A DNA stretch of 64,000 nt from Chthonomonadales bacterium (GCA_038231295.1 JBBRLP010000009.1:1-64000); one strand, 5' to 3'; positions 29,494-58,533 are shown, counted from the first letter of the stretch. Numbers and translations: made by a program. Notes: generated by a model from the letters alone, not told the origin.

Positions 29494-32400
29494 TTACCGC
29501 TGATTGCTGGCCGTCGGGTAGAGCTGCGGCGCGATGGTCTCGAAGTAGAGATCGGTCGAACCGGCGCGGGTGCTGCTCCAGAAGATCCAGACCTTGTCCA
29601 GGAACGGGTCTTTGAAGGCGGAGACCTGCCCTTCGCTCACCGCCGAGTCGGTGGGCAGCGCCACCTCCGGCGTCGTCTGATCGCCCTGCTGCGCCGAGGT
29701 GCTGATCTCGTCGCCCCAGGCCACCTGATACTTCAGGCTTCCGGAGTTACCCGTGTTCCCGGAGGTCGGGTCGTAGTAGGTGTAGCTCACGGTGATGGAA
29801 CTGTTCTCGTCCGCCTCGGTGAAGTATATCCGTCCGCGCACCCAGTCTATCTCGTAGGGGCCGACGTTTCCGCCCACCGTGACCGGCGTCATCTGCTGCG
29901 TCCCATTGCCCTGCACCGCACCCAGTTTGACCGGGAACGGCAGCTTGACCATGAGCCGCATCGCCTTGTAGTAGATCGTGGATTTGGCGACACCGCTCGG
30001 ATCGTTCTTGCGGTAGAAAACCCACATCCGGTCTAAGGTCGGCGTTCCGCCGAACACCACCTGCGGCGACACCAACTGCGCCCTGGGATTCAGGCCCCGG
30101 TCGAAGAGGACGACCGGACTGGTGTTGTTACCCGAGGACGTAATGGCGGCGGTCGGACGCAGGGACGGCGCGTTCGGCAGGTTGCCGAAGTTGGCGAGAG
30201 ACGTCCGGTCTATGTTCGAGTCGTCCCGCGACGTATTCAGCCGCATTATGAACGGAATGTAGCTTACCTGGATGCGGTCGGCCAGCGCCGGAGCCACCTG
30301 CGGGAAGCGGATGGTGCCGGAGCGCGAATCTACCGTGATCTGTCCTCCCAGGGCGGAGTCGAAGTAGATAAGGCCCGATGCCTGGTCGTAGCGGCCACGC
30401 TGCGGCAGGTTCGGCATCCCCGGCTGCGCGTTGATGAGAACCGGATTGTTTGCCAGTCCGCCCTGGATCAGGAAGATTTTGATCTGGCTGCCGGGGTCTG
30501 TCGTCGGGTCTTGCAGCAGGCCCTCCGGCCCGGTGCCGAGTTCCCAGGCCGCGTCGCGTCCCTGGTAGGTGTTGCTGCTGCCCAGGCGCGTCAGGACTTC
30601 GCCGACGACCGGCTTGATCGGCAGGATGGTCAGAGTGCCTACCGGCGGGTCGCCTGCCTTCGCCGGGGCAACCCGGTTGATCTTATAGCGGCAGAGCAGG
30701 GTCTCGACCGTCTGACGGCCTTTGAGAACGCCCGTATACACCACGTCAATCACGTCCAGCACCTGGTTCGACCCGTAGGGGTCGGGAATATGGCGATAGA
30801 CGGGCGCGGGATCGCTCTGCCATACCAGCGCTCCCGGCATCGGTAGTTTGAGGTCGCCGAGCGGGTTGCCAGCAGCGTCCAGCAGCCACTTGCTGGTTCC
30901 GTCGAACGGCGTGTTCAGCGCCGTGCTGCCAAGCGCGTTATAGTAGATCGAAGCGTTCGACTGGTTGCCTGCGTGCCAGAAGACATACAGGAACTTCTGC
31001 GCGGGCGCTCCATTGGCGGCAGGCAGTTTGACAAGCAGTGGTCGGGGCGCGAGTTTGGTCAGGCCCGGATCGTTCGGCATGGCGTTGATGTTGCCGGTCG
31101 GGACGCCCGGCGCCGCGCCGCCATTCAGACTTGTCCAGGAGACACGCGAGTCACGCGCTTGCTGCTGTCCACCGGCGGAGGCGACGAGTTTGTCCACCTG
31201 TCCCTGCCAGAAGAGATAGGCTTCGTTGTCGTTGGGGTTCGGGGAGCCGTAGCCGCCGGAGAAGTCCACTGAGGACGCTACCGCCGGATGCGACAGCCGC
31301 ATCGTGTCCACATTCGCCGGTCCCGCGAGGAAGGGCGAGGCGCCCGAAGTCGAGGGGAACAGGCTGGTGATGTTCGCATTGGTATACAACTGCACGACCG
31401 GCACCGACCACCAACTGGAGATTTTGGGCAGTGGCTGACCGTTGGCGAAATCGAAGTCGCCAATGACGATGCCGGTGCCGCCGACCGCGCTGTAGGGAGC
31501 CGAGACATTGCTGTACGCGAGCTGGTAGGGAGCATACGCCTTGAGCAGGCCGGTCGTCGGGTCTATGTAGCCATCCACACCCTGTCGGCGGTTGGTAGAC
31601 CAGTACATGAACAGGTTGCGGTTGAAGACGTTCCCGCCCGTTCCGGGGGCCATGAAGACCGCCGGGAAGGTGTCTGAACCGGGAGGCGTCGGCAGTTCGG
31701 GATGCAACGGGTCGGCCCAGGAGCCAGGCACGTCGAGCATGGGCAGGTCACCGGAAGTGACGCCCCGGCTCAGTTTCGCTTCTCGCACGGTTGCCTTCAG
31801 GATGAACGTCGGGTCGGTGTGCGCCTCGGAGGGCGTTCCGGCCTGTGTGATGTTCAGGACACCGTCATGGCTGGCCGGGAAGTTTGAAGTCGTTCCGGCG
31901 ACGGTCGGATAGTTGCTCAGCCACTCCTGCCATTGCAGGGGCGTGTTGTCCTCATAGGTGTAGATGGGAGCCGAGTAGGTTCCGACCGGAGTTCCGAGCG
32001 GAATCGCCACGCCGATGCGCGGCCGCTGGAAATCCGCCGCGAACAGGGTTCCGGGTACGACAGTGGCGCTGTAGGGCTTATCCGGGATCGTTGAGGAGCG
32101 GCCCTGCGTGTCGCCGACGTGCGGCTTGCCGATGGTCGGCTGCGGCTGTATCTGGTCCTTCCAGCCGAAGATGCCGTTCGCCAGATCGTCTACCGTCGGA
32201 AGCAAGGCTCCGAACTGATTGGCGTTGTCAATATCGGCCTGCACGACGAACGGGTTGTTCAGCGGCCACAGCGCCCGCTCCGAGAACAGGGAGGTCGTCG
32301 GATTGCTGGAACTGCTGATATGGTCGTAGGACGAGATGACGCCGATGTTTCCGACTCCGGGCTGGCCCGAAACGTTCTTGAACGGCAGGGCGAACAGCGG

Positions 32401-35400
32401 CGCGATGGACTGGTTGTTCACCTGGTCGCTGTACATCTTCACTGTCGTCGCGAACGAGCCGTTTTCGACGCCGACCGTCGGGTCGGTGAAGGGCGAGAGA
32501 GCGCGTCCGGTGATCTGCGCCCGGTTCTGGCCGAGCAGTTTCGCCACGCGCACATCCACCAGGTTGACGTTGCTCTCATTGTAGACGGTGAAGGGCCGGA
32601 AGAACTCGCCCTGAAGCGTCGGGTCGTCCCAGATGAACGGCCCCGGCAGGCCCGGTGACATATCCGGTGCGAACGGCACCTGGAAGGAGCGCGGCTGGCT
32701 GTTATTGGTCAGCGGCGTGTAGCCCGTGCCGTGCGGCAGTTTGCCCACGTCCAGCGTCGTCTCCGCGACCCGCATCTTGACGCCCGGTGGCACCGAGACG
32801 CCGACTTCGAGAGCGCGGTACGCCTCGTTCACCCCGGCATTGCTGCCGTAGCGAGCCGCCTGGAAGAAGTTGGTCGGATTGTAGCCGCCTGCCGGTCGGG
32901 GCAGGTCGGGCGGAATGACCCGGATGACCACCGCCGAGACGTAGCCTGCGGCGGGATAGGAGAGCGCGTTGCCCAGCGGCGTCGGCTGCCCGTTCGAGGT
33001 CTGGAGCGGCCCCAGAACCGTCTTATCGTAGTTCTGCGTCACGGTCGGATCGGACGGGTTGCCGCGATTGACCCCCGACATATCCAGGAAGGAGGAGCCG
33101 AACGTCACGCCGTTGAAGGTACGGAGACCGTAGTTGATGTTGGCGGGCTGGAAGCGCGGCACATTGACCGCCATCGTAAACGGCGTCGCCACCAACTGAC
33201 GGGTTCCCGCGATGGCGTCGCTGCCGTTGAACTGGTAGTTCGGCAGTTTCAGTTGAACCGAGCCGCCAATCGCATCCTCATCGCCCTGCGTCTTGCGGAC
33301 GGTGAATGCGGAGGTCGGAATACTCGGGTAGTCCAGGGTATCCTGGGCATCCGTCGGCAGTTGTTCCCAGGGCAGTGGGTTCATGACGGCGGAGCCGGTC
33401 GCGGTCGGGTTCTGGGACGGCGACCAGCCGTGCCAGCCGAGTTTGCGCGTCAGCACCTGAATCTGGAGCGGCTTGCGGCGCAGTCCCCACATATTACTGC
33501 GGTCTACGATATAGAACGCATCCTGTCGGTTGCCTGCGTTGTCCACGCCCCCATACGTCGAGGTGGAACCGTCCGGCACCATCGGCAGCGGCGCGAAGAG
33601 CGACTTGACCGCAGAGTTCGTCGTCACCACGCCCGGAATGACCTGTCGGTTGCCGTTGCCAAGCAGTTCCCCGACGTTGGCGGGTTTGATGGTCAGCGCA
33701 TTCTGCACACTGCCATAGAGACCGACAACGTTCAGGTTGCCCTTGCCCGTCATGTCCGAGTTCAGCGGAATAGTGAGGTCCGGGTTCAGCGGCGAAATGC
33801 TGCGGGTCGTGACCGCGATCGGGTTCGTGATCGAGTAGGCACGTGCGATGCCGAGGATATTCGTCTGGGAGGGCGGCGTCTGGAACGCCGCAATCAGTCC
33901 GGTATAGTCGTGCTGGCCGATGGCATAGGTGGGCGTTCCCGCCGACTGATTGGGGAACGGGGTTGTCGTCATCGTCGCCGGGTCGTAACCCTCAAGGTCC
34001 TGATAGATCTCGGCATGGGCCGTAATACGGTAGCCGCGCACTCCCGGCAGGAAGTTGGCGATGGTGCCGTTGTCCGTCGGCGCTCCCGGATAGATCGGGA
34101 AGGCATGGGAGAAGACCCAGGGATAGACGTTCTTGTCGCGTCCCTGCAGAAGCTGCGCCGCCGGGTTGCCCATGTTCGGGTCTATGCCGAATATCTGGAG
34201 CGTATCGTGTTCGCCGTTGTTGATGGCGACGTCGTCGGGCCAGAGTTCGCCTGCGGCGGCGTGCAGCGCTTTTGTCTGCGGGAAGATGTCCGCCGCATAG
34301 CTGGTCGAAGCGCCGCCGGGCTGCGAGATGGTAAAGGTGACATGGATGCGCGGTGGGCCGGTGCCATGCAGGGGCTTGGTCTTGTCGTCCGTCGGCTGCG
34401 CGTGGTAGACGCCTGCCGCTGAGACATAGAGCATATCCCCCCAGTCGGAACCGTATTCGGTATTGCCGGCAATCAGGTTGCCGGGGTCGGGCAGAACGGA
34501 CTTGGTATACCCACCGCCTGCGTTCTTGCGGTTGGGCGTATTGGTTCCCGCAACGATCTTGTTGTAGCTGTCCTGGCGATAGATGTCGAAGACGCGCAGG
34601 TCAATACTGAGGTTGCCCGCGCCGAGTGCGATCTCCGCCGGTTCGCCGCCGTTGTTCGGTCCCAGCGTATTGCCCAGACCGTTCAGCCCGACTCCGACAC
34701 CGTAGGCGCGGAGCTGGCCGCCCTCGTCGCCTTCGACGATCATACCGGAAGCGAGAGACGCCGACGCGATCCGGTTCGCATTGACCTCATGGTGATGCCA
34801 TATCTCAGAAAGCAGGGTATCCGTGCCAAACGTGCCGGGCTGTGTCGTATCGGGCCGTGCGGTAAGGCCCCAGATTGCGCCATCGTCGTCGGCGAAGACA
34901 AGAGCGGGCTGCGGGTTGATGGTATCTACCGATTCGCCCGGCAGGCCGGTCAGCAGGGTCGCGATGGGGCTGGCGCTGGTGTTCGCGCCGCTGAGAGTGA
35001 TGCCGGAAGCGATGAGTTTACCATTGAAGGCGTTCAGGCCGATGAGTATGCTGTTGCCTTCGAGGACGTAGCAGAAGTCATTGGTGACCGCCGGACTGGA
35101 CGGAATGACGGGTGCAGCGTTCAGCGTCGCCTGACTCATCAGCACGGGAGCCGTGCCATTGAAGCCCGGATCTAGCGCGACAGTCGCGTCGTTCGCGGGG
35201 TCAGCATTCGGTGGGGTCGGCGTATTCGGGAAGACCCATTTCAGCGTATTGGTGGTCGGCGCGGTCGGACTGACGACTGCCGGAACCTCCTGCACCGCGT
35301 AGACGCGGCCTTCACAGGTGAAATAGAGGTAGGGGAAACCCGCACCGGCAGGCTGGAAGATCGCCGCCGTGCTGATCGCACCGCCAAGACCGGTATTGCC

Positions 35401-37764
35401 CGTTTCAGGGGGAGCAGGATAGACCCAGTTGCGCCGCTCCTGCCAGACCGGTTTGAGGGTGTTGGCATTGTAACTAAGGAGAACGTCATTCGCCGCGTTC
35501 AGAGCGTACATGTGTCCATCCCCCGCTCCGATAAAGAACGGCACCTTTTTGGGGTCGCCGCCCGGCGCGGGATAGGTGGGGTCATAAGTAGGCGAAGCCA
35601 GAATCGTTCCGAGGCTCGGATCGTCTTTGATCAGATTGGTCGCCGTGCCGTTCGGGAATTTCGCGTAGTAGGCGTCCGCTCCGAAGTGTGGATAGGTCCA
35701 GATGCGCTGCGTGGTTCCCAGCGTCGTGAAGACGGTCGGGTCGTAGTCGCCGCGCCCGCCTGCGTCGAAGGCGTAGACACGTCCGTTCTGGTTGCCCACG
35801 ATGAGTATCTGCGCTCCGGTCAGGTTGTCCGGGTCGTCAATGATGATCGGAGAACCGAGCGAGCCGCCGAAAGCGGGCAGGCTTGTGTCTTTGCGGACGA
35901 TGAAATCTCCCGCCTGGGCCGGATTTGCAACGATCTCTCCGTCCCAGTGGAAGAAGGGATCCGCGGCATCCACCCCCCAGGTGGGCGGAAACAGCGTTGT
36001 GAAACTGGCAGGGCGCTTGTAGTTCGGATCGTGCGCCTGGGCGGGAACTTTGTTGGCCGCCAGTTCCGCCGCCGTCAGCGGGACATAGGACGGATAGGTC
36101 CAGTAGTTCTGCGTGGTGTGCAGGGGGAGGTTACCCGCCGCGTCGAAGGCGTAGATGTGTCCTAGCGTCGCCGTGCTGTTGGTCGTGATGAAGTAGACCA
36201 TCGTGCGGGTCACCCCGTCACGACAGCGCACATTGGCGAGCAGGGGCGAGGCGGCGCTGGTGGCATCGGTGCTGGAAGCGTCTGCAATACCGACATAGCG
36301 CCAGCGTACCCGATCTATCGAGCGGGCGAGTCCATCCGGGTCTCCGCCGAGTGTATTCAAGTTCTGATTGTTGACACAGTAGAAGACGGGCGCGGTGATA
36401 GTCGCGGTCGGGTCCGGAATGAGCGGATTGGTCGCGCTGGCGGGCAGCGTCGGGTCGGTGGGAATGCGCGGTGTGGGATCGGGAACAGACTCCTCACGGG
36501 CAAAGAAGAACAGGGGCTGCGCGTCGGTAATCGGATTGCCCTGCAAGTCATTCAGAAGCTTGTTGGTTCCCACGACCGGGCCAAGAACCCGCCCGTTCGG
36601 CGAGATATTGCCGAGGGCCGCGTTCGCTCCCGACGATTTGGCGACGAACCGCACTGCGTCTGCTGTAATGACCGGAAGTGAACCGCCGAAGCCGGGATCG
36701 TTGATATCGTCCGGCGTGAGAGTATACAGCGTGACGGTTATCTGGTCGCGGGGATCGCCGGAAAAGGGGAAGACAGCCGGGCTGGAGCCGCCACCCTGAA
36801 TATGCTGCCAGCCGGGCGCTCCAGGGTCAATTTCATAGATACGACTGGTCGTCGGGTTGTCAATGTTGGCCTTGACCGGGTTGCCGTTAGCGTCAATCGT
36901 TCGGAACCAACTGACCCGCACAAACGCACGGAGTACGCTGGCATGTCCGGTAGTTACGCCGCCTTTAGAGATTTTCGTGAAGTCGCCGGGCATATAGACA
37001 TCCACGCCGTAGTTCCCGACCACCAGGTTGGTCGCTCCCGAAGAGACAACTGAGGTCGGATGGATGTCATTGATAAGTACGTTCTGTACCGCAGCATAGA
37101 CATTGGTCGCCGCGTTCGGCAGGGCCGCCAGTTCGGTGCGAGTGGCGGCACGCTGCTGGCCCGTAACAGCATCAATAACCAGAAAATCGTTGTGCGTGGC
37201 GAGGACGTAGGCGTAGTCTTTGGTATAGGTCTGGTTCGGGTCCGTCGAAAACGAGAAGCCCCCTGTCGTCGAGCGGTAGTCGTTTACGGGAACCGGAGGC
37301 CCCGGCGCGACCGCAGGCAGGTTCCAGCCACCGTTCAGGTAGCTGTGCGCGATCACCTGTGGGTCGTTGCCGGTCTGCATCGCATAACCGGGCATGACGC
37401 GCACGATGTTGTTTTGCGTGTCTTTGAAGTTTTGTGGGTCGGTCGCGTTGGCGTTGTCTACTATAATGGTGGGCAGCGTTGTCACGCCGGTGGTGGAGAT
37501 GTCCAGGGTACGCGGGAAGACCCAGCGCTGCACACCGTGACCGGGATTGTTGGCAACATTGTTGATATTGTTGCTGCCCGGACGCGTGGGAATCCCCGAA
37601 GAGGTCGCGGCGTTGAAAGTCAGGTTGCCTCGATCCAGCAGCCAGTCCACGTCGTCGAAGACAGGAACCTGCGCCTGCGCCGCTCCCGCCGCCAGAGCGA
37701 ACAGGAGGGCGATCAACGCGCTCAGACCGGATTTGCGGAGGAGAAGCGTGCTTCTATACCTCAT
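29494..37764 (-). CDS. Giant secreted protein with PQQ-like beta-propeller repeats (candidate PilY1-like pilus-associated adhesin)
   Basis: The long ORF ends at 37809 (2,771 aa). The start was chosen at the ATG at 37764 (MRYRSTLLL...), which has a strong RBS AGAGGAAA 7 nt upstream. It gives a canonical signal peptide (LSALIALLFALAAGAAQA). Multiple G-[RH]-[VM]-YA-[FL]-[DN]-A motifs (GRVYAFDAGG, GHMYALNAAN, GRVYAVQE, HIYAFDAAGN) are typical of PQQ/BamB-like beta-propeller blades. It is co-directional with and 39 bp downstream of another giant beta-propeller gene, at the distal end of a type IV pilus gene array. Confidence 0.7.
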   Translation of the reverse strand: MRYRSTLLLRKSGLSALIALLFALAAGAAQAQVPVFDDVDWLLDRGNLTFNAATSSGIPTRPGSNNINNVANNPGHGVQRWVFPRTLDISTTGVTTLPTIIVDNANATDPQNFKDTQNNIVRVMPGYAMQTGNDPQVIAHSYLNGGWNLPAVAPGPPVPVNDYRSTTGGFSFSTDPNQTYTKDYAYVLATHNDFLVIDAVTGQQRAATRTELAALPNAATNVYAAVQNVLINDIHPTSVVSSGATNLVVGNYGVDVYMPGDFTKISKGGVTTGHASVLRAFVRVSWFRTIDANGNPVKANIDNPTTSRIYEIDPGAPGWQHIQGGGSSPAVFPFSGDPRDQITVTLYTLTPDDINDPGFGGSLPVITADAVRFVAKSSGANAALGNISPNGRVLGPVVGTNKLLNDLQGNPITDAQPLFFFAREESVPDPTPRIPTDPTLPASATNPLIPDPTATITAPVFYCVNNQNLNTLGGDPDGLARSIDRVRWRYVGIADASSTDATSAASPLLANVRCRDGVTRTMVYFITTNSTATLGHIYAFDAAGNLPLHTTQNYWTYPSYVPLTAAELAANKVPAQAHDPNYKRPASFTTLFPPTWGVDAADPFFHWDGEIVANPAQAGDFIVRKDTSLPAFGGSLGSPIIIDDPDNLTGAQILIVGNQNGRVYAFDAGGRGDYDPTVFTTLGTTQRIWTYPHFGADAYYAKFPNGTATNLIKDDPSLGTILASPTYDPTYPAPGGDPKKVPFFIGAGDGHMYALNAANDVLLSYNANTLKPVWQERRNWVYPAPPETGNTGLGGAISTAAIFQPAGAGFPYLYFTCEGRVYAVQEVPAVVSPTAPTTNTLKWVFPNTPTPPNADPANDATVALDPGFNGTAPVLMSQATLNAAPVIPSSPAVTNDFCYVLEGNSILIGLNAFNGKLIASGITLSGANTSASPIATLLTGLPGESVDTINPQPALVFADDDGAIWGLTARPDTTQPGTFGTDTLLSEIWHHHEVNANRIASASLASGMIVEGDEGGQLRAYGVGVGLNGLGNTLGPNNGGEPAEIALGAGNLSIDLRVFDIYRQDSYNKIVAGTNTPNRKNAGGGYTKSVLPDPGNLIAGNTEYGSDWGDMLYVSAAGVYHAQPTDDKTKPLHGTGPPRIHVTFTISQPGGASTSYAADIFPQTKALHAAAGELWPDDVAINNGEHDTLQIFGIDPNMGNPAAQLLQGRDKNVYPWVFSHAFPIYPGAPTDNGTIANFLPGVRGYRITAHAEIYQDLEGYDPATMTTTPFPNQSAGTPTYAIGQHDYTGLIAAFQTPPSQTNILGIARAYSITNPIAVTTRSISPLNPDLTIPLNSDMTGKGNLNVVGLYGSVQNALTIKPANVGELLGNGNRQVIPGVVTTNSAVKSLFAPLPMVPDGSTSTYGGVDNAGNRQDAFYIVDRSNMWGLRRKPLQIQVLTRKLGWHGWSPSQNPTATGSAVMNPLPWEQLPTDAQDTLDYPSIPTSAFTVRKTQGDEDAIGGSVQLKLPNYQFNGSDAIAGTRQLVATPFTMAVNVPRFQPANINYGLRTFNGVTFGSSFLDMSGVNRGNPSDPTVTQNYDKTVLGPLQTSNGQPTPLGNALSYPAAGYVSAVVIRVIPPDLPRPAGGYNPTNFFQAARYGSNAGVNEAYRALEVGVSVPPGVKMRVAETTLDVGKLPHGTGYTPLTNNSQPRSFQVPFAPDMSPGLPGPFIWDDPTLQGEFFRPFTVYNESNVNLVDVRVAKLLGQNRAQITGRALSPFTDPTVGVENGSFATTVKMYSDQVNNQSIAPLFALPFKNVSGQPGVGNIGVISSYDHISSSSNPTTSLFSERALWPLNNPFVVQADIDNANQFGALLPTVDDLANGIFGWKDQIQPQPTIGKPHVGDTQGRSSTIPDKPYSATVVPGTLFAADFQRPRIGVAIPLGTPVGTYSAPIYTYEDNTPLQWQEWLSNYPTVAGTTSNFPASHDGVLNITQAGTPSEAHTDPTFILKATVREAKLSRGVTSGDLPMLDVPGSWADPLHPELPTPPGSDTFPAVFMAPGTGGNVFNRNLFMYWSTNRRQGVDGYIDPTTGLLKAYAPYQLAYSNVSAPYSAVGGTGIVIGDFDFANGQPLPKISSWWSVPVVQLYTNANITSLFPSTSGASPFLAGPANVDTMRLSHPAVASSVDFSGGYGSPNPNDNEAYLFWQGQVDKLVASAGGQQQARDSRVSWTSLNGGAAPGVPTGNINAMPNDPGLTKLAPRPLLVKLPAANGAPAQKFLYVFWHAGNQSNASIYYNALGSTALNTPFDGTSKWLLDAAGNPLGDLKLPMPGALVWQSDPAPVYRHIPDPYGSNQVLDVIDVVYTGVLKGRQTVETLLCRYKINRVAPAKAGDPPVGTLTILPIKPVVGEVLTRLGSSNTYQGRDAAWELGTGPEGLLQDPTTDPGSQIKIFLIQGGLANNPVLINAQPGMPNLPQRGRYDQASGLIYFDSALGGQITVDSRSGTIRFPQVAPALADRIQVSYIPFIMRLNTSRDDSNIDRTSLANFGNLPNAPSLRPTAAITSSGNNTSPVVLFDRGLNPRAQLVSPQVVFGGTPTLDRMWVFYRKNDPSGVAKSTIYYKAMRLMVKLPFPVKLGAVQGNGTQQMTPVTVGGNVGPYEIDWVRGRIYFTEADENSSITVSYTYYDPTSGNTGNSGSLKYQVAWGDEISTSAQQGDQTTPEVALPTDSAVSEGQVSAFKDPFLDKVWIFWSSTRAGSTDLYFETIAPQLYPTASNQR

Positions 37765-37847
37765 GGAATTTCCTCTTATCTTCATCTCATTAAGAGCGGC
37801 GGAATGCATTCCGCCGCTCCGAGCCTATAGCGGTCAATTTTTGTCTC

Positions 37848-50462: not shown

Positions 50463-51446
50463 CTACGGCTTGTAGTTCAGCGGGAGCAGCCGCGCCGCCT
50501 GAACTACATCCATTTTCTTGGCCGTTCCGCTGAGCAGTATGACCATGACCTTCGAGCTGTTGGCCGTCGCGACGTGCTGCGTAACGTAAGTGAGGACGGT
50601 TCGGTCTGCCGGCGGATTCTTGTACTTCAGTTGGGTCACGTCAATCTGGCCGCTATTGGCAGCGTCCGTCGGCTCACAGGCGGTGCCGAGTTTGTGGGTC
50701 CAGTCTGGGCTGTAGTGCAGTTCGTACTGCGGCATCCCCGGTGAGACATACATGATATTGCCGTTCGCATCAAGGCGCGGCCCGATGTCCATGCTGTCCA
50801 TGACGTAGTAGAGCTTGGGCTGTCCGATATAGGAGGCCGAAGGCAGGTCGCGGTCGCCAATCGTCGCGCAACTGGAGCCTGTAGTCGCTTCCCAGGTCAC
50901 GATCTGGTCGGGCTTGTACAGCGAGTTGTGGGGATAGTAGACCTGCGTCACCATCCGTTTGTCCTTCACGAGGTTGTCGGGGGTGGTGAAGGTGATATAG
51001 TCTTTGACCTGTTCGGGATAGAGATAGCCGCGATTGAGGCCGACGGCAGGCGTACCGACATTGGTCGCGAAGAACTCTCTTGCCAGTTCCATCGAGGTGA
51101 TGTTCAGCGTCGGGTTGACATCAGTGGGCAGGGCGGGACGCTGGGGCGGCGTAATCGTGCTATCGGGAGCCTCGGCATACCCGAACAGCACGGAGGGATA
51201 GTGGCCTTCGTCCTCATTGAAGAGTTTCGCGCCCACATAGACCGTGTGCAGGTTGCTCATGGTGCCGCTCTGCCGGGCCTGTTCGCGCACGGCCCCGAAG
51301 ACCGGGAAGAGAATGGCGGCGAGGATCGCGATAATCGCGATGACGACGAGCAGTTCGATAATGGTAAATGCACCGTGCGCCCGTCGGCGCGGCATGAGCC
51401 GGGTATCCATAGTGTTCTCCGTAGATGCGTACATAGGGGACGCCAC
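50463..51446 (-). CDS. Prepilin-type protein of the DUF1559-like family (candidate pilin subunit)
   Basis: 327-aa ORF with AHGAFTIIELLVVIAIIAILAAILFPVFGAVREQARQ. The N-terminal helix followed by ILFPVF-x-x-AREQAR is the pattern of DUF1559 prepilins. These are abundant in Planctomycetota, Verrucomicrobiota and Armatimonadota. The start is probably an internal Met (MDTRLMPRRRAHG...). Confidence 0.75.
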   Translation of the reverse strand: MASPMYASTENTMDTRLMPRRRAHGAFTIIELLVVIAIIAILAAILFPVFGAVREQARQSGTMSNLHTVYVGAKLFNEDEGHYPSVLFGYAEAPDSTITPPQRPALPTDVNPTLNITSMELAREFFATNVGTPAVGLNRGYLYPEQVKDYITFTTPDNLVKDKRMVTQVYYPHNSLYKPDQIVTWEATTGSSCATIGDRDLPSASYIGQPKLYYVMDSMDIGPRLDANGNIMYVSPGMPQYELHYSPDWTHKLGTACEPTDAANSGQIDVTQLKYKNPPADRTVLTYVTQHVATANSSKVMVILLSGTAKKMDVVQAARLLPLNYKP

Positions 51447-51473: not shown

Positions 51474-52235
51474 CTAAAAATTAAACTTGAGAGGCCCTTT
51501 GGTCGTGAACTGGTTCGCGGGAATGGGCTTGACCGTCCCGGACAGCATCAGCACCGGAATGATGCCTGCATGGGCGACTCCGCAGTGATAGGTACACCAG
51601 GTCACGACGGTATTGCTCTCCGGCGGATTCGGGTATTTCAACTGGTTCTGCGGGTCGTTCGCCCCCGTCATTCCCGTCCAGTCGAGCGCGTAGTGAACTT
51701 CGTAGGTGTAGGGCGGCATGGCGTTGAAACTGGAATCCAGCGCGGGGCCGATGTCGTAACTATCGTAGGTGTAGAAGTAAGCGGGCTTGCCTGCATTCAT
51801 CACCTGACCGCTCAGCGGCACATTTGCCGGGTAGACGGCGGTGGTGACGGCGGTCGGGTTCGGATTCACATTGTCCGGGCAGAGAAACGCCTGTTTGCCG
51901 GTCGCCGTCGTTTTCTGCTTGATAAGCGGCCGCGCCAGCACCTGGTCTATCTCCAGCGGAGTGCCGGTGCCGATGTAGAGTTGCTGCTGACCGCCTGCAT
52001 TAGTGAAATACGGGTTGGCGCACATAACCGTCGGGAATTTGCCATTGTCCTCTTTATACAGCTTAATGGCCTGGGCAATCGCTCCCATCTGCTGCATACA
52101 GGTGGACTGGCGCGTCTTTTCGCGGACATGGCCGAAGGCAGGGAAGAGAATAGCAGCGAGGATCGCGATTATCGCGATCACGACGAGTAGCTCGATCAAG
52201 GTAAAGCCCCGATGGGCACTTCTGTTCTCTCTCAT
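51474..52235 (-). CDS. Prepilin-type protein of the DUF1559-like family (candidate major pilin)
   Basis: 253 aa. HRG|FTLIELLVVIAIIAILAAILFPAFGHVREKTRQSTC is a canonical prepilin leader with Glu+5. It is the first pilin gene after pilD. A structured 290-bp non-coding region lies upstream of it. Confidence 0.8.
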   Translation of the reverse strand: MRENRSAHRGFTLIELLVVIAIIAILAAILFPAFGHVREKTRQSTCMQQMGAIAQAIKLYKEDNGKFPTVMCANPYFTNAGGQQQLYIGTGTPLEIDQVLARPLIKQKTTATGKQAFLCPDNVNPNPTAVTTAVYPANVPLSGQVMNAGKPAYFYTYDSYDIGPALDSSFNAMPPYTYEVHYALDWTGMTGANDPQNQLKYPNPPESNTVVTWCTYHCGVAHAGIIPVLMLSGTVKPIPANQFTTKGPLKFNF

Positions 52236-52524: not shown

Positions 52525-53619
52525 CTAATAGGGTGGCAGCGGCGGTTTTGGCACGGCGCTGTTCTCGTGAAACGCGTAGCTCAGATAGAGCGCCGTCAGC
52601 CACTCGCCCCCGAAGGCCGTTGCCAGAAATCCGATGACCAGAAAAGGACCGAAGGGAATCGCGCTGGCAGCGGGTTTCCAGTCGTCCTCCTCGCTCGCGA
52701 CCAGTGTGGGAAGCGGTTCGCGGCGGGTTTTGTCGCGCAGATAGCTCCACAGATCACCCAGAACGAGGCACCAGCCGATGTCCGCCAGTTCGCGGCCCAG
52801 AGACGAGCCGTCCGACTCTATTTCTTCGGCTGTCGCCTCGTCATTTCCTCTCTCAATTTCCCCCGAAACGCCTGCGATTTCGGTACGGCGGCGTAAAAAG
52901 ATGAGCGCGGGGCCGACAATGAGGCCGGACATACAGGCCAGCAGTATCCAGATGGGGAAAAGCCGCAGGGCGCTCGCGCCTGCCGGAACGAGCAGTGCGA
53001 GCATTGCGCCCATCGCCCGCGCCAGCAAGACATCGCCCAACCCCATCGCCTCCTGCCGCTTCCAGAGCCAGCCTGCCAGTCGCATCGCGCCGAAGAGCAG
53101 CATCCCAACGACTGCGCCGAGAACGGAACGCGGCAACCATCCCCAGAGCAGACCATACCCCGTCTCGTGGCTCGCGATGCCGTAGACATCCCGCCCGACT
53201 GCCACAAAAAACGCCAGCAGGTTGAGCGAGTCGGGAATGGTGAAAGTGGCGAGGTCTATGAAATAGATGGGAATCAGCAGGGCCGCGAAGAACAGCATGG
53301 CGACTGCTGTCGGGCCGTCGTGCTGAAAGCGCAGCGTGAGGGCGGCGAACAGCAGGCCCGTGAGCAGTTCAACGGAGAAGTAGCGCCAGGAGATAGGCAG
53401 CTTGCAGGTGCGGCATTTCTGCCCGAGGAAGAGGAAACTGAACAGAGGCACGAGGTCGAGGGCGGTCAGGCGGGTGCGGCAGTTCGGGCAGAACGACCAC
53501 TGCGGTTCCGATACCGAAATGCCGAGCGGCAGGCGATAGATCACGACATTCAGGAAACTGCCGATACAGATGCCAAAGGCGAACGCCGTTGCCGTCCAGA
53601 ACCAGAGAGGTCCACTCAT
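52525..53619 (-). CDS. pilD: Prepilin peptidase (A24 family, PilD/GspO-like)
   Basis: 364 aa. The N-terminal zinc-binding tetracysteine region is GSFLNVVIYRLP...CPNCRTRL...GQKCRTCK. Multiple TM helices follow. An unusual acidic cytoplasmic insertion (EIERGNDEATAEEIESDGSS) lies before the last helices. Confidence 0.85.
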   Translation of the reverse strand: MSGPLWFWTATAFAFGICIGSFLNVVIYRLPLGISVSEPQWSFCPNCRTRLTALDLVPLFSFLFLGQKCRTCKLPISWRYFSVELLTGLLFAALTLRFQHDGPTAVAMLFFAALLIPIYFIDLATFTIPDSLNLLAFFVAVGRDVYGIASHETGYGLLWGWLPRSVLGAVVGMLLFGAMRLAGWLWKRQEAMGLGDVLLARAMGAMLALLVPAGASALRLFPIWILLACMSGLIVGPALIFLRRRTEIAGVSGEIERGNDEATAEEIESDGSSLGRELADIGWCLVLGDLWSYLRDKTRREPLPTLVASEEDDWKPAASAIPFGPFLVIGFLATAFGGEWLTALYLSYAFHENSAVPKPPLPPY

Positions 53620-53695: not shown

Positions 53696-54940
53696 CTACT
53701 CTTTGGCCGCGCCGTCCTTGTCCTCGCCGCCGCCGGAGAGGTTGCTGATGACGTTCAGCAGGGGCATGAACATCGCGATGACGATGAAGCCGACGCAAAA
53801 GCCGAGGAAGACGATCATGACCGGTTCGATGGCGGAGGTGAGGGACTGGAGAGTGGACTCCACTTCGCCTTCGTAGAACTCGGCGATCTTGGAGAGCATC
53901 TGATCGAGCGCTCCAGACTCTTCTCCGATGGAGATCATATGGACGACCATCGGCGGGAACATCTTGCTGCGCTCCAGCGGCTCGTTGATGCGCTCTCCTT
54001 CACGGATACGGGCGCGGGCGTTCATGATCGCTTCGCTGATGATCTCGTTGCCGACGACTCCGGCCACGGTCTCCATCGCCTGGAGGATGGGAACACCGGA
54101 GACGAGCAGCGTCGAGAGGGTGCGGGCGAAACGGGACAGGGCAATCTTGTGGCCGAGTGGGCCGAAGACAGGCACTTTCAGTTTCAGGCGGTCAATGACG
54201 CGCCGTCCGAGTTTGGTCGAACCCGCGTATTTGATCGCCATCCAGATCGCGCCGACAATCAGCAGGCCGACCCACCACTTCTCTTTGAGGAAGTTGGAGA
54301 AGTCAACGAGAACCTGCGTCATCCAGGGCAGTTCCTTCACGCCGAGGTCTTTGAATAGGTCAATGAACTTCGGAACGATGAAGGTGCAGAGGCCGAGAAC
54401 GATCAGGATCGCGACGACGACAACGATGGCCGGATAGGTCATGGCCGCCTTGACTTTGCGGCGCATTTCCATGTCCTTTTCCAGGAAGTGGGACAGACGC
54501 TGGAGGGCTTCTTCGAGGACACCACCAATCTCTCCGGCGCGGACAAGCCCGATGAACAGGTTGTTGAAGACCTTCGGGTATTTCGCCATGGATTTCGAGA
54601 GGGTCTGGCCGCTTTCGACCTCCACCTGGATCTCGCGGATGATGCGCTTAAGCTTCGGGTTCTGGGTCTGCTCACCAAGCACATCGAGGGCGCGGACGAG
54701 CGACACACCGGCGTCTACCATCGTGGAGAACTGCCGGCAGAAGATGGAGAGGTCCTTGAGTTTGACGCGCCCGAATCCGCCGCCCTGTTTCTTCTTGGCG
54801 GTCTTCGTCTGTGTGACTTCGTTGACGGCGAAGCCCTGCTCGACGAGGCGGCGTTTGAGAATGTCCTGGTTTTCGGCTTCCGACGTTCCGGTGCGAACCG
54901 CCCCGGTAGCGTCACGAACAGTGTACTGATAGGTGGGCAT
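53696..54940 (-). CDS. pilC: Type IV pilus / T2SS inner-membrane platform protein (PilC/GspF family)
   Basis: 414 aa. The N-terminal MPTYQYTVRDATGAVRTG is typical of PilC. Two GspF-type repeats and three TM helices are present. RBS AGGAGAAAAC lies upstream. Confidence 0.9.
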   Translation of the reverse strand: MPTYQYTVRDATGAVRTGTSEAENQDILKRRLVEQGFAVNEVTQTKTAKKKQGGGFGRVKLKDLSIFCRQFSTMVDAGVSLVRALDVLGEQTQNPKLKRIIREIQVEVESGQTLSKSMAKYPKVFNNLFIGLVRAGEIGGVLEEALQRLSHFLEKDMEMRRKVKAAMTYPAIVVVVAILIVLGLCTFIVPKFIDLFKDLGVKELPWMTQVLVDFSNFLKEKWWVGLLIVGAIWMAIKYAGSTKLGRRVIDRLKLKVPVFGPLGHKIALSRFARTLSTLLVSGVPILQAMETVAGVVGNEIISEAIMNARARIREGERINEPLERSKMFPPMVVHMISIGEESGALDQMLSKIAEFYEGEVESTLQSLTSAIEPVMIVFLGFCVGFIVIAMFMPLLNVISNLSGGGEDKDGAAKE

Positions 54941-54961
54941 GGTGTTTTCTCCTGGAACTTA

Positions 54962-56227
54962 TCAACGGTAGCCGGCCTGGCCGGGTTGCGGGGTGGTGGC
55001 GGTCTTGATCATCTTCTCAAGTTCCGTCGGGTTCATAGCGCGGGTCATGGCCTCGTCGAGCGAAATCACACCGCGCACGTACATGTCGCGCAGACACTGA
55101 TCCATCGTCTGCATACCCATATTGGCGCTGGTTTGAATCATGGACGTGATCTGATGGGCTTTGGCTTCACGGATCAGGTTGCGGATAGCCGGGGAGGCCC
55201 GCATGATCTCGAGGGCGCAGGCACGTCCGGGTTGATTGGCGCGGGGAATCAACTGCTGGCATAGAATGGCCTGCAAGTTGTTGGAAAGCTGGAGGCGCAC
55301 CTGCTCCTGCTGCCCTCCAGGGAACGAGTCCACGATACGTTCGACGGAGGTCGCGGCGGAGTTGGTATGCAGCGTGGCGAACACAAGGTGGCCCGTTTCG
55401 GCAGCGGAGACGGCCATCTGCATGGTTTCGAGGTCGCGCATTTCGCCAACGAGGATGACATCCGGGTCTTCGCGGAGGGAGGCGCGGAGGGCGTTTTTGA
55501 ACTCTTTGGTGTCCTGCCCGACTTCGCGCTGATTGATAACCGAGAATTTATGCGTGTGCAGGTATTCAATCGGGTCTTCAATCGTGATGATATGCTTGCT
55601 CTCCTCGCTATTGATGTGATTGATCATCGCGGCGAGCGTGGTGGATTTGCCGGAACCTGTCGGGCCGGTGACGAGGACGAGGCCGCGCGGTAGGTGGGTC
55701 AGCTCTTCCAAAATGGGCGGCAACTGCAGGTCCTTGAGTGTGGGGATCTTCTGCGGAATCTGCCGAAAGGCCATCGCGCAGTTGCCCTTATCGCGGAAAA
55801 CGTTGACGCGGAAACGGGCAATACGGGCCAACTGGTACGAAAAGTCCAGTTCGAAATCGGTTTCAAAGCGCTGAATCTGTTCGTCGGTGAGGATGTCGTA
55901 GATCAGTCTCTGCGCGGCCTGCGGGGTCATCTTCTCCCAGGGCATCGGCACGAGTGCACCATCCACGCGGATGACGGGCGGAATTCCGACGGCAATATGG
56001 AGGTCGGACGCGCCTTTTTCGTTCATGGCCCGGAGCAGGTCGTCAATATGCGCGTCGTCGAGGACGAAGGGACGCGCCGAGGTCGCCTGGATGGGTGCGG
56101 GCGGCATTCCGGGAACGCCCGGCACTCCGGGAGGAGCCTGGGGCTGTGCGTAGTTCGGCTGGCCCTGCGGCGGAGCATAGCCCTGTCCGGGCTGGTTCGG
56201 ATTGTTGGGGAACTGATTGTTCGACAC
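54962..56227 (-). CDS. pilT: Type IV pilus retraction ATPase PilT-like, with Pro/Gln-rich N-terminal extension
   Basis: The PilT/PilU-type core has LVLVTGPTGSGKSTT (Walker A) and DPIEY. It also has DVILVGEMRDLETM (Walker B/Asp box) and ATLHTNSAA (His box). The longest ORF runs to 56371. The start was chosen at the GTG at 56225-56227, which follows a strong RBS GGGAGAAAAAGACC. This gives a ~60-aa low-complexity leader (VSNNQFPNNPNQPGQGYAPPQGQPNYAQPQAPPGVPGVPGMPP). The start remains ambiguous. Confidence 0.8.
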   Translation of the reverse strand: MSNNQFPNNPNQPGQGYAPPQGQPNYAQPQAPPGVPGVPGMPPAPIQATSARPFVLDDAHIDDLLRAMNEKGASDLHIAVGIPPVIRVDGALVPMPWEKMTPQAAQRLIYDILTDEQIQRFETDFELDFSYQLARIARFRVNVFRDKGNCAMAFRQIPQKIPTLKDLQLPPILEELTHLPRGLVLVTGPTGSGKSTTLAAMINHINSEESKHIITIEDPIEYLHTHKFSVINQREVGQDTKEFKNALRASLREDPDVILVGEMRDLETMQMAVSAAETGHLVFATLHTNSAATSVERIVDSFPGGQQEQVRLQLSNNLQAILCQQLIPRANQPGRACALEIMRASPAIRNLIREAKAHQITSMIQTSANMGMQTMDQCLRDMYVRGVISLDEAMTRAMNPTELEKMIKTATTPQPGQAGYR

Positions 56228-56438
56228 GGTCTTTTTCTCCCGATAAACGCCGTCCGTCCTGCCACATCCTTTGCAGAATGGGATAGCCCACGGCATAGCA
56301 GCTCTGATTAGTACGTAGTAGGCAAGTGTACAATTTAGTCCGGTGGACGCAGGATGGCAAAGGGTTGACACTCCTCGCTACGCGCCTCCGGCGGATCGTC
56401 CTTCGGACGAAGGGAATGCCCGTCGGGAATGACATCGG

Positions 56439-56540
56439 AATGAATTGCGGGTTTGCCCATCCGTTTGCCCTTCGGAATGAATTCCGAAGGGCAAACACCG
56501 GACGCAACGGCAAAATGATGGGCAAACCCGCAATTCATTC
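56439..56540. repeat. Nested double-palindrome (cruciform/RNA double-hairpin element) between pilB and pilT
   Basis: Outer 24-bp perfect inverted repeat: gaatgaattgcgggtttgcccatc at 56439-56462 and gatgggcaaacccgcaattcattc at 56517-56540. It encloses an inner 34-nt near-perfect palindrome at 56463-56496 (gtttgcccttcggaatgaattccgaagggcaaac). All arms are built from two motifs (ggaatgaatt, gtttgccc) in alternating orientation. This is why ORFs 56326..56616(+) and 56335..56634(-) translate to the same peptides. Confidence 0.7.
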
Positions 56541-56757
56541 GCTGTGTTGGATGTGGCTGCCGCAGGCCGTGCCGTTTCGTCCTGACCGGAGGTTCCCGTT
56601 TCGATGGGAGCCATAACGGAAACGCCTTCCGCACCGCCGACCATTGCGGTCTACGGCGCGGAAGAACGAAGCCATTCGAAGGTACGATTGAACCACGTTA
56701 GCCACTACATCGCGCTTCCAATCCCTGGTCTGCGATTCCACACAGGCGAAGTGCGGT

Positions 56758-58533
56758 TTAGTAACCGGCGGTGAAGACGACGCGCATGACCTCTTCGGGC
56801 GTGGTCTGCTGCGCGAGAACTTTCAGCAGTCCGTCTTCCTTGAGTTCCTTCATGCCGTTGGCTTTGGCGGCCTCTTTCAGGTCACCGAGCGGGGCGCGGC
56901 GCACCACCATTTCGGCCATCTCCGCGTTCATTCGCATTAGTTCGTAGAAACCGATACGGCCCTTGTAGCCCGTATGGCGGCACATCTCGCAGCCACGTCC
57001 ACGCGCAAGGGTCACCAGCTCACCCGGGTCTTCCGGCTTGAAGCCGAAGCGGCGCAGATCGGAACCCGGAACCTCATAGGTCTCCTTGCAGTTCGTACAG
57101 ATTTTGCGTCCGAGGCGCTGGGCGAGAATACCGATGATCGTCGCCGAGATAAGGAACGGCTCGATCCCCATGTCAATAAGGCGGATCGTGGCCGAAGGCG
57201 CGTCGTTGGTATGGAGCGTCGAAAGCACAAGGTGGCCTGTCAGCGAGGATTCAATGGCGATTTCCGCCGTTTCCAGGTCGCGCATCTCTCCGACCATAAT
57301 GATGTCCGGGTCCTGACGGAGGAAGGAGCGCAGGGCGCCGGCGAAATTGAGACCGGCCTTCTTGTTCACCTGCACCTGCGTGATACCGGTCAACTGGTAC
57401 TCACAGGGGTCTTCGACTGTCAGGATGTTGACGCCGACGGTGTTGAGGCGGTTAAGCACCGAGTACTGCGTGGTCGTCTTGCCGGAACCCGTTGGACCGG
57501 TAGAGAGAAGCATTCCGTTCGGCTGGTTGGAAAGTTCTTCCAGTTGGGCCTGCATCTCGGGGGTAAAGCCGAGTTTGTTCAGCCCGATCATGATGCTGCT
57601 CTTGTCGAGAATTCGCATGACGATCTTTTCACCGAACAGGTTGGGCAGACAGGAGACGCGGAGGTCGTAGTCCTTGTTCTCGTAGCGGATGGGGATACGA
57701 CCGTCCTGCGGAACGCGCCGTTCGGCGATGTTCATTTCCGAGAGAATCTTATAGCGGGCCGTCAGCGGCATCTGAAGGTATTTCGGCATCGGCATGGCTT
57801 CATGCAGAACGCCGTCAATGCGATACCGGACGCGCATGTTGCGGGTTCCCGGCTCGATATGGATGTCCGAGGCACGCTCTTTGATCGCCTGCTGAATAAT
57901 CGTGTTGGCGAGGCGAACGATAGGCGCGTCGTCGGAGCCGTCCACACTGGCCTTTTCGTCGTCCGCGTCAATGTCCGCGCTCTTGTCCGCGCCGTAGCGG
58001 GCGATGGCTTCCTTCATGTCGGTCGCCATGCTGCCGCTGCCGAGTTCCATCCCGTCTTTGTTCGGGTTCATTCCGGTCTTGGCGCTGATCTCTCCCCCAG
58101 TGGAGCCGCCGTAGAGACGGGCAATCGCATCGGTAATGTGATCGGGAACGGCTAGAACTGCGCGTACCGTACAGCGCGAGACCAGGCGCAGGTCGTCGGC
58201 AGCCGTAATGTCGTTGGAGTTTGCCATCGCCACATAGAGGATATTGCCGTCTTTTTTGACCGGCAGCACATTGTGGCGTTTCGCGACGTGTTCGGGAACG
58301 ACATTCAGCGCACTCTGATCGGGCTTGTAGACGGTGAGGTCCACGAAGGGCTGACCGAGTTCCGCCGCCTTCGCTTCATAGACGTGCGTGGGATTGAGGC
58401 CGAGGTCTACCAGGATTTTCGCGAGGTCGCCATGCGTAGACTGCTGGGCCTTCTTCGCATCCTCTATCTCCTGTGTAGAGGCGTACCCCTTCTCCACCAT
58501 ATAGTCGCCCAGGCTTTTTCGTGCCATTACCAT
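56758..58533 (-). CDS. pilB: Type IV pilus assembly ATPase PilB (GspE family)
   Basis: 591 aa. The N-terminal GspE_N/MshEN-like domain precedes the ATPase core (LLSTGPTGSGKTTT, DPCEY, IIMVGEMRDLETA, STLHTNDAPS). A C-terminal tetracysteine zinc motif is present (CTNCKETY...CEMCRHTGYKGR). Confidence 0.9.
   Translation of the reverse strand: MVMARKSLGDYMVEKGYASTQEIEDAKKAQQSTHGDLAKILVDLGLNPTHVYEAKAAELGQPFVDLTVYKPDQSALNVVPEHVAKRHNVLPVKKDGNILYVAMANSNDITAADDLRLVSRCTVRAVLAVPDHITDAIARLYGGSTGGEISAKTGMNPNKDGMELGSGSMATDMKEAIARYGADKSADIDADDEKASVDGSDDAPIVRLANTIIQQAIKERASDIHIEPGTRNMRVRYRIDGVLHEAMPMPKYLQMPLTARYKILSEMNIAERRVPQDGRIPIRYENKDYDLRVSCLPNLFGEKIVMRILDKSSIMIGLNKLGFTPEMQAQLEELSNQPNGMLLSTGPTGSGKTTTQYSVLNRLNTVGVNILTVEDPCEYQLTGITQVQVNKKAGLNFAGALRSFLRQDPDIIMVGEMRDLETAEIAIESSLTGHLVLSTLHTNDAPSATIRLIDMGIEPFLISATIIGILAQRLGRKICTNCKETYEVPGSDLRRFGFKPEDPGELVTLARGRGCEMCRHTGYKGRIGFYELMRMNAEMAEMVVRRAPLGDLKEAAKANGMKELKEDGLLKVLAQQTTPEEVMRVVFTAGY

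Follow-up and report, generated by a model that had tools for sequence, protein, structure and literature searches.

Eleven co-directional genes on the minus strand (29494-58533) of the 64-kb window, the whole stretch of DNA analyzed here, carry a type IVa pilus motor set joined to genes for what may well be a much enlarged version of the FimU-PilV-PilW-PilX priming and tip complex, joined by two new PilY1-like proteins, a reading that we regard as evenly balanced. The motor genes encode the PilB extension ATPase, PilT retraction ATPase, PilC platform protein and PilD peptidase. Two smaller prepilins and five large proteins of 661, 745, 1,049, 1,692 and 2,771 aa follow, and all five large protein families are unnamed.

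Gene organization and pilus motor

All eleven ORFs reported by the first-pass annotation were found at their coordinates. The gaps of 16-290 bp given there do not hold between PilB and PilT, which are separated by at least 386 bp. The PilB-type ATPase (56758..58533, minus strand) matches T2SSE (9.8e-131) and possesses an N-terminal MshEN domain (1.4e-19). It scores 629 bits with the NCBIfam PilB model TIGR02538 and 585 bits with GspE, both under their cutoffs. PilT (54962..56371, minus strand) matches TIGR01420 pilT_fam (7e-151) with 502 bits (cutoff 319); a P/Q-rich extension precedes its core, which begins at ORF residue 109, and the start codon is uncertain. PilC (53696..54940, minus strand) matches T2SSF (8e-72), and its best NCBIfam match is the Thermus-type PilC (2.4e-133). 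For both PilB and PilC the T4aP models outscore the Gsp models, though under the equivalog cutoffs. The PilD prepilin peptidase (52525..53619, minus strand) was identified by A24_N_bact (6.7e-30) and Peptidase_A24 (2.2e-8). A promoter-like site (TTGCAA, 17 nt, TG-TATAAT; 58628..58656, minus strand) lies 5' of pilB as a pattern match from a consensus scan, with 10/12 matches. Terminator-like sites were absent from the intergenic regions on the coding strand.

Profile searches among the large ORFs of the window revealed no secretin or PilMNOP, as had been noted before, and no GspC, GspD, GspL or GspM. Fimbriimonas has been reported with PilQ and PilM (PMC4072686). Two further minus-strand genes had been described as following on from the locus: a PrsA/SurA-like PPIase (28127..29320; Rotamase 1.6e-23) and a secreted 263-aa protein with a CLKCH motif (27217..28008; Tll0287/DUF3365 2.9e-4, weak and under cutoff). 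Both proved to be lineage-specific neighbours rather than conserved parts of the locus in the relatives examined, where the PPIase gene, outside the conserved cassette, lies downstream of it only in the close relative L085.

Prepilins with Glu5

Four proteins, of 253, 327, 661 and 745 aa, possess a class III signal peptide (Gly or Ala at -1, a hydrophobic residue at +1, Glu at +5 and a hydrophobic helix), with the cleavage sites G↓FTLIE, A↓FTIIE, G↓FSLIE and G↓FTLIE, respectively, and N_methyl matches above the Pfam cutoff. Pilin 1 (51474..52235, minus strand; 253 aa, N-terminus HRG↓FTLIELL, N_methyl 38 bits) is GspG/DUF1559-like, with GspG as its best NCBIfam match (3e-13). The 327-aa ORF of pilin 2 (50463..51446, minus strand; N_methyl 28 bits) is its paralogue, with 35% identity (E 1e-30). 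Both had been annotated as DUF1559-like prepilins; the prepilin part stands, and the DUF1559 part is limited to a weak match of the 253-aa protein at 22.4 bits against a cutoff of 23.3 bits.

The 661-aa prepilin (48462..50447, minus strand; N_methyl 23.5 bits) has a PilV/GspI-like N-terminus with a weak match to TIGR02523 PilV (4e-6), and Glu5 is invariant in its family. The 745-aa prepilin (46191..48428, minus strand; N_methyl 30 bits) occupies the PilW/GspJ position, with Phe1 and Glu5 invariant. Beyond the helix the two carry domains of unknown fold, of about 570 and 660 aa; in the 661-aa protein the helix alone has counterparts in the PDB. Their N-termini are homologous (hhalign probability 95.7%), and the 661-, 745- and 1,049-aa families can be aligned through their N-terminal helices.

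The 1,049-aa pilin-like protein

The protein in the PilX/GspK/ComZ position (42987..46136, minus strand) lacks Glu5. Its N-terminus, RRG↓QTLIIAL, follows a pattern kept across 114 homologues, in which Gly24 and Gln25 hardly vary and the +5 residue is hydrophobic in the consensus. A helix was modelled at residues 26-81. Comparison with the N-terminus of the 745-aa pilin gave an E value of 5e-4, but a low probability of 31%. The predicted fold is ComZ-like, an ice-binding-protein-type beta-solenoid joined to the pilin helix, and it resembles the tip pilin ComZ at 13% identity. The model also contains a CBM35/36-like jelly roll. The family comprises 873 clusters at 50% identity.

This protein had been called GspK/PilX-like. 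The PilX_N (PF14341) and T2SSK/GspK models do not bear this out, giving nothing at E <=0.01 for the whole protein and only noise for the N-terminal 110 aa alone (PilX_N E 3.8, one orthologue). The assignment is retained because of the N-terminus without Glu5, the predicted fold and the gene position. That these models leave the protein unrecognized is an observation against the tip reading, and so is the lack of secretin and PilMNOP genes in the window.

Two giant Sec-exported proteins

Sec signal peptides were found on both giants, which are unrelated to each other. The 1,692-aa protein (37848..42926, minus strand) is composed of a ThuA/DUF4159-like domain, a BamB/PQQ-like propeller, an NHL propeller and a C-terminal tail that is conserved. 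The AF2 model of residues 1-1200 (pLDDT 88) displays the first two of these, and the family profile finds designed propellers of the NHL type (1e-11). The ORF of the last giant (29494..37809, minus strand) spans 2,771 aa; the deposited protein has 2,756 aa, with Met16 as the probable start. The giant contains a PQQ-like propeller, spanning roughly residues 490-1050, and some 840 conserved residues in its C-terminal region, and the family profile matches designed 'Cake' propellers (1.6e-14). The giant aligns with a protein, P0274, that bears Golvesin_C and PQQ_2, and PQQ_2 is present in distant homologues. The earlier description of both giants as beta-propeller proteins thus keeps its support. 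The three largest proteins have 120, 215 and 35 homologue clusters, the last number belonging to the 2,771-aa giant, and therefore these large features are not chance ORFs.

A check of the giants for a C-terminal PilY1-type propeller with a calcium loop had been suggested, and a calcium loop was found. The sequence DLDNDGNSD at residues 438-446 of the 1,692-aa protein is the PilY1-type calcium motif 1, Dx[DN]xDGxxD (PMC13190605), and sits in a propeller loop between the strands 427-432 and 460-465. The motif arose in 75 of 20,000 shuffles, and 36 of 80 homologues retain it; its loss from over half of the family is an observation against the tip reading. It is not present in the 2,771-aa giant. 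Neither giant has a significant Pfam match of its own, including PF05567, and the family profiles of both gave no match to 3HX6, the PilY1 C-terminal domain, at E <=1. PilY1 was not recovered by sequence or fold searches with the giants, and this want of evidence for PilY1 homology also speaks against the tip reading.

Conservation in Armatimonadota

The search for the same architecture in relatives, suggested by the first-pass annotation, matched 395 species-level loci. Among 80 Armatimonadota loci, including that of the cultured Chthonomonas calidirosea, the order pilin, 661, 745, 1049, 1692, giant is constant in all that are sufficiently long. Both the 661- and the 745-aa genes are present in 57/57 loci with enough upstream sequence, and the 1,692-aa gene directly follows the 1,049-aa gene in 70/70. 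The last giant was recognized in 51 of 55 loci, and the other four have an unrecognized giant ORF at the same place. The gaps between gene calls in relatives are short (7-223 bp). The order holds across lineages diverged to about 30% identity, with or without pilBTCD. Since pilBTCD lies directly upstream in just 32 of 47 loci and the cassette is intact also where it is not adjacent, the cassette is the conserved unit. It could also function on its own, served by motors whose genes lie at other sites.

Comparison with known systems

The parallel with the fimU-pilVWXY1 operons of Pseudomonas aeruginosa and Myxococcus xanthus, drawn earlier from gene order, is upheld by the four Glu5 prepilins, the pilin-like protein without Glu5, the Sec-exported non-pilins and an order constant across the phylum. 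In both, Glu5 minor pilins are followed by a protein without Glu5 in the PilX/GspK position and then by a Sec-exported non-pilin that combines an alpha/beta domain at the N-terminus with a propeller bearing Dx[DN]xDGxxD, and the genes are linked to pilBTC and pilD. However, the components here are each 3-5 times larger, with a pair of non-pilin partners that together reach about 4,450 aa. PF05567 and 3HX6 similarity was not detected here, the N-terminal domain is ThuA/DUF4159-like instead of vWA, and a BamB/PQQ-like propeller precedes an NHL propeller.

In the Thermus thermophilus locus pilA1-pilA2-pilA3-comZ, a pilin-like protein with a large ice-binding-protein-type beta-solenoid (ComZ, PDB 6QVI) is likewise the fourth after three minor pilins, and the PilC found here is of the Thermus type. 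Unlike ComZ, the 1,049-aa protein is twice as big and has extra CBM-like modules, in addition to the low identity; the pilins before it exceed their Thermus counterparts 3-4 times in size, and Thermus has no giant partners. The cyanobacterial PilX_Com and PilX_EPS (HpsA) sets (Schuergers et al. 2026 preprint) share a FimT-PilW-PilV-PilX set, a beta-solenoid PilX as the proposed tip plug and an expanded PilX with extra domains, and both occur in Terrabacteria-type lineages. They are generally without PilY1-like partners, whereas two giants are always attached here, and neither an HpsA model match nor conserved hps glycosyltransferases were found here. Saccharibacteria PilX1/PilX2 (PMC11623550) carry lectin-like jelly-roll or propeller modules on a pilus priming set for adhesion. 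There, pilin and module form a fusion, whereas the propeller proteins are separate and Sec-exported here, with an order-of-magnitude difference in size.

Beta-solenoid PilX tip pilins, proposed as tip caps, are thus known from Thermus (ComZ; PMC6561018) and cyanobacteria (bioRxiv 10.64898/2026.02.12.705559). The claim of a previously undescribed machine therefore holds only in part. The Verru_Chthon cassette (TIGR02596-02600) was rejected as a candidate: matches were limited to N-terminal helices and lay far under the cutoffs (protein C, 20 bits vs 256; protein D, 16-22 vs 70), and neither giant matched its models at E <=1.

Proposed mechanism and alternative explanations

In the proposed mechanism, PilD would cleave the prepilins, and three of them would bundle their N-terminal helices on the platform: the GspG/FimU-like pilin, the 661-aa protein in the PilV position and the 745-aa protein in the PilW position. 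The 1,049-aa protein would sit on top, its beta-solenoid and CBM-like domain capping the filament. The two giants may then attach to the cap within the periplasm, much as PilY1 docks on PilVWX, and serve as plug and adhesin once the major pilin polymerises below, with binding mediated by their propeller, ThuA-like and calcium-loop modules. What the analysis shows are the identities of the motor parts, the prepilin signals, the ComZ-like and propeller folds and the constant synteny; complex formation, tip location and adhesion, like the physical association of the cassette proteins with the pilus and their display at its tip, are what we infer. A more novel form, in which Armatimonadota build a five-protein priming and tip complex of about 6,900 residues with two giant non-pilin subunits unrelated to PilY1, is put forward tentatively as a possibility. 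The total of these residues, set against passage through a secretin, is an observation against placing all five at the tip.

A short T2SS-like endopilus, with the enlarged pseudopilins as piston and the two Sec-exported giants as cargo crossing the outer membrane, is unlikely, and the T2SS-like exporter suggested earlier is weakened because the operon contains a PilT gene, scoring above its cutoff. Such a system would suit the GspG match of pilin 1 and the signal peptides, which T2SS substrates also have, and would relieve the pilus tip of a load of about 6,900 residues; there is also the precedent of Armatimonadetes systems, some of which were reassigned to T2SS (Denise et al. 2019; PMC6668835). 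Yet PilB and PilC favour T4aP over Gsp models, GspC, L, M and D are missing from the window, and the strict cassette order persists without adjacent pilBTCD, which is unusual for T2SS substrates.

The giants might otherwise be proteins of the envelope or surface with a role of their own, for instance as enzymes, matrix proteins or adhesins, encoded in the pilin operon yet not bound to the pilus. Their folds are generic (BamB/PQQ-like, NHL, ThuA-like) with none specific to pili, and the two are unrelated; but their place and order after the 1,049-aa gene are fixed across the diverged lineages whether or not pilBTCD is present, and the gaps between gene calls are short. This explanation is rather improbable.

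Doubtful as well is a relationship to the cyanobacterial Hps system, in which an expanded PilX comparable to HpsA and the pseudopilins would drive the secretion of polysaccharide or a track-following motility on surfaces, while the giants would assist by binding glycans. The beta-solenoid architecture is common to PilX_EPS/HpsA, the 1,049-aa model has its CBM35/36-like jelly roll, and the 745-aa N-terminus matches HpsC weakly (1.4e-4). However, this match covers the generic pilin helix only (21.5 bits vs a cutoff of 200), and HpsA gave none. A glycosyltransferase cluster adjoins the cassette, directly downstream, in one of the eight relatives examined (L086), and is absent in the window and six other relatives. 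A competence pilus, with the ComZ-like protein as tip DNA receptor for natural transformation, would accord with the Thermus-type PilC and is very improbable, with ComEA/ComEC not found in the window, the ComZ identity low and the two giants left unexplained.

Biological significance

Minor-pilin/PilY1 tip complexes set the binding target and the assembly timing of type IV pili, and the known ones fit a secretin. The same gene logic is found here with parts 3-5 times larger and two giants of no named family, across a poorly studied phylum. An enlarged priming and tip complex would extend the recent finding of beta-solenoid PilX caps in Terrabacteria, and five large families of 'hypothetical proteins' gain a probable role. 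A concrete, testable question is raised of how tips of such size get across the outer membrane, and experiments are feasible because Chthonomonas calidirosea T49, which carries the cassette, is in culture. If the five-protein tip is true, a new way would be needed to assemble or export a tip far wider than the secretin channel, such as stepwise docking outside the cell, another outer-membrane conduit, or a periplasmic stator-like base.

Gene organization of the locus

A total of thirteen ORFs, all co-directional on the minus strand, occupy positions 27217-58533. The motor genes stand at the upstream end. PilB (56758-58533) was identified by Pfam from T2SSE (9.8e-131) and MshEN domains. PilT (54962-56371) scores 502 bits with TIGR01420 (cutoff 319), and its core begins at ORF residue 109. 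PilC (53696-54940) has a T2SSF match of 8e-72, its top NCBIfam model being the Thermus-type PilC, and the prepilin peptidase (52525-53619) was recognized by both Pfam and NCBIfam. Screening of the remaining large ORFs in the window revealed no secretin, PilM/N/O/P or GspC/L/M, in agreement with the first-pass annotation, which had reported a window without secretin or PilMNOP genes. The range of 16-290 bp given there for the intergenic gaps does not hold between pilB and pilT, where at least 386 bp were measured. A strong promoter-like site was found upstream of pilB, and no terminator-like site in the intergenic gaps on the coding strand, both by pattern scanning only.

The MshEN domain of PilB (1.4e-19) is accompanied by a match to the c-di-GMP motif below its cutoff, and because of these two features pilus extension may, judging from the sequence, be under c-di-GMP control. 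Ahead of its core, the PilT ORF has some 100 additional P/Q-rich residues (56047-56371), and the PilT ORFs of relatives are likewise long, 385-434 aa. A promoter-like site is located at 56360-56332; PilT may therefore own a separate start site.

Prepilins and the pilin-like proteins

Four proteins, of 253, 327, 661 and 745 aa, pass the N_methyl cutoff of Pfam, with cleavage sites (at the slash) of HRG/FTLIELL, HGA/FTIIELL, ASG/FSLIEIL and SAG/FTLIELL, respectively. The two small pilins (253 and 327 aa) are paralogues with 35% identity. They had been described as DUF1559-like prepilins; they are prepilins, and the DUF1559 likeness is sub-threshold and restricted to one of them. Glu5 is invariant in the 661- and 745-aa families, whose N-terminal helix regions are homologous (hhalign probability 95.7%). 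The 661-aa protein also has a weak NCBIfam match to PilV, and profiles of both families found no match among PDB sequences beyond the pilin helix. With these genes the locus very probably encodes a T4aP motor and its minor-pilin set.

The 1,049-aa protein begins with RRG/QTLIIALAILFVLLFIGG, a pilin-type helix without Glu5, and Gly24 and Gln25 are nearly invariant across its family. Its N-terminus aligns weakly to the helix of the 745-aa pilin (E 5e-4, probability 31%); in this alignment the -1 Gly stays in register and position +5 is hydrophobic. No family match was obtained from Pfam or NCBIfam, and nothing was found with the family profile among PDB sequences. AlphaFold2 modelled the protein with confidence (pLDDT 90.4, pTM 0.89), as a 56-residue N-terminal helix followed by mainly beta structure. 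ComZ, a GspK-like pilin into which a solenoid is inserted, has been argued to occupy the pilus tip (PMC6561018). The same solenoid was reported in all cyanobacterial PilX proteins, with an expanded form in HpsA, and was proposed to replace the PilY1 plug (bioRxiv 10.64898/2026.02.12.705559, 2026 preprint).

The two giant exported proteins

The 1,692-aa (37848-42926) and 2,771-aa (29494-37809) proteins, both on the minus strand, possess ordinary Sec signal peptides and have no significant match in Pfam or NCBIfam. When all five large proteins were searched against these libraries, both at full length and segment by segment, only the pilin helix, a weak DUF4159 and a weak NHL match came up. The giants are not paralogues of each other (hhalign probability 0.8%).

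Residues 1-1200 of the 1,692-aa protein were modelled by AlphaFold2 with good confidence (pLDDT 87.6, pTM 0.90), and C-terminal to them the family profile matches NHL-type designed propellers (1e-11). Residues 438-446, DLDNDGNSD, are part of a loop between propeller strands and agree with calcium motif 1 of PilY1, Dx(D/N)xDGxxD (PMC13190605). The motif turns up in 0.4% of composition-preserving shuffles, and 36 of 80 homologues keep it at the corresponding position. Designed propellers are also matched by the family profile of the 2,771-aa protein (1.6e-14). Two of its regions, residues 490-1051 and 1930-2766, align with giants of Fimbriimonadia; the former is PQQ_2 there, and the Fimbriimonadia proteins have an additional Golvesin_C domain upstream of the propeller. 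Both giants end in a strongly conserved tail, ...LLEQPxFSDRPF (window 37848-37900) and ...DLYYETIAPQFYPTASNQ (window 29494-29550), respectively, and these tails could be docking or sorting signals.

Distribution and synteny of the cassette

Homologues of the three largest proteins fall into 120, 215 and 35 clusters, which lack names or are called hypothetical; wherever the source is named, it belongs to Armatimonadota. A search of the representative library with the 1,049-aa family profile finds 873 clusters at 50% identity, the matches listed being full-length family members. Scanning one genome per species gave 395 loci with a relative, from which 80 were fetched and annotated with phmmer and family HMMs. 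They come from Chthonomonadales, Fimbriimonadales, Armatimonadaceae and Capsulimonadales, except for a 12.6-kb cassette-bearing contig labelled Sedimentisphaerales (Planctomycetota), which is probably a binning error and not an occurrence outside the phylum. Chthonomonas calidirosea T49, a cultured organism, has the cassette as well; its orthologue of the 1,692-aa protein bears the label 'NHL repeat' or hypothetical.

Where the sequence upstream of the 1,049-aa gene spans 4.5 kb or more, the 661- and 745-aa genes are both present (57 of 57 loci). The 1,049-aa gene is followed by the 1,692-aa gene in 70/70. The 2,771-aa giant was recognized downstream in 51 of 55 loci. In the other four (L053, L054, L079 and L083), a giant co-directional ORF unseen by the profile takes the last position after the 1,692-aa homologue; this final component therefore either diverges much faster than the rest or was replaced. 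Fimbriimonadales-type loci encode one pilin and five large genes behind unrelated upstream genes, so that the conserved unit is the cassette and not the 31-kb locus. Comparison within Armatimonadota thus bears out the architecture proposed by the first-pass annotation for the five-gene cassette but not for the whole locus, since pilB-T-C-D lie immediately upstream in only 32 of 47 loci. In the MAG CBDFGA01 the cassette occurs twice, on separate contigs, which recalls how Myxococcus has multiple minor-pilin/PilY1 clusters.

Downstream of the last giant, gene content varies among relatives. In the window a PrsA/SurA-like PPIase and a secreted CLKCH protein with a weak Tll0287/DUF3365 match follow (27217-29320). 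The pair recalls TfcP, a cytochrome c of M. xanthus that helps PilY1.1 bind calcium, but a role as conserved helpers was rejected as a general feature because the pair was found only in one close relative. Conserved EPS genes were likewise rejected, as they are not common to the relatives checked. One Chthonomonadaceae locus, L086, has glycosyltransferase, CapK-like, asparagine synthase and UDP-glucose dehydrogenase genes directly after the last giant (18290-28073), a cluster absent from the other relatives checked.

Large envelope genes form another minus-strand cluster at 5045-21388, encoding a TPR protein (5045-6724), a 1,366-aa protein without Pfam match (6917-11017), a 473-aa protein that is weakly FadL/OMP-like (11093-12514) and, at 12602-21388, a protein of 2,928 aa containing Big_13/Big_3 Ig repeats. 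GC is 0.51-0.55 at 6-14 kb and 0.60-0.64 elsewhere; the low-GC stretch may be acquired DNA. Plus-strand ORFs reaching 1,365 aa run antisense to giant genes (17138-21235, 32731-34422 and 44073-46091), but at ~62% GC such ORFs are to be expected, and they are not genes.

Proposed mechanism and alternatives

The parallel to fimU-pilV-pilW-pilX-pilY1 drawn in the first reading is sustained: minor pilins with Glu5 and a cap pilin without it are followed by Sec-exported non-pilin partners. After cleavage by PilD, the pilins would form a bundle on PilC, capped by the 1,049-aa protein through its predicted solenoid. The cap would then receive both giants by docking in the periplasm. PilB would polymerize the major pilin beneath, so that the giants serve as plug and adhesin, and PilT would allow retraction. 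The invariant synteny makes physical association of the giants with the pilin trio somewhat favoured, and their display at the external tip is a tentative proposal. The weakest point of the tip model is size, as the five large proteins total ~6,900 residues and would have to pass a secretin.

A T2SS-like piston with the giants as cargo is unlikely: although the pilins are GspG-like, the giants bear Sec signals and Denise et al. (PMC6668835) assigned T2SS in Armatimonadetes, the operon includes PilT, Gsp-specific parts were not found in the window, and cassette synteny outlasts separation from the motor genes. Invariant gene order is also hard to square with the giants being independent surface proteins, which we consider quite unlikely. 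An Hps-like polysaccharide or motility system would conform to the HpsA-type architecture, to the CBM-like and GldG/IFT52-like folds and to the glycosyltransferases adjoining in L086, and yet is improbable given that HpsA or HpsC membership was not found and the glycosyltransferase genes are not conserved. A competence pilus, for which the sole basis is a distant ComZ fold match, is very improbable.

Among known systems, the cassette comes closest to the PilVWX-PilY1 complexes described in Pseudomonas and Myxococcus, to the ComZ locus of Thermus and to the PilX sets of cyanobacteria, and the likeness is one of layout. Sequence tests did not place the cassette in PilX_N/T2SSK, PilY1, Hps or the Verru_Chthon cassette; membership in the last two was rejected because matches are at helix level only and below cutoffs. 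The cassette belongs to the generic prepilin class and, by predicted fold, to the solenoid-PilX kind. No description of it was found in the literature library searched, and its five large proteins belong to unnamed families.
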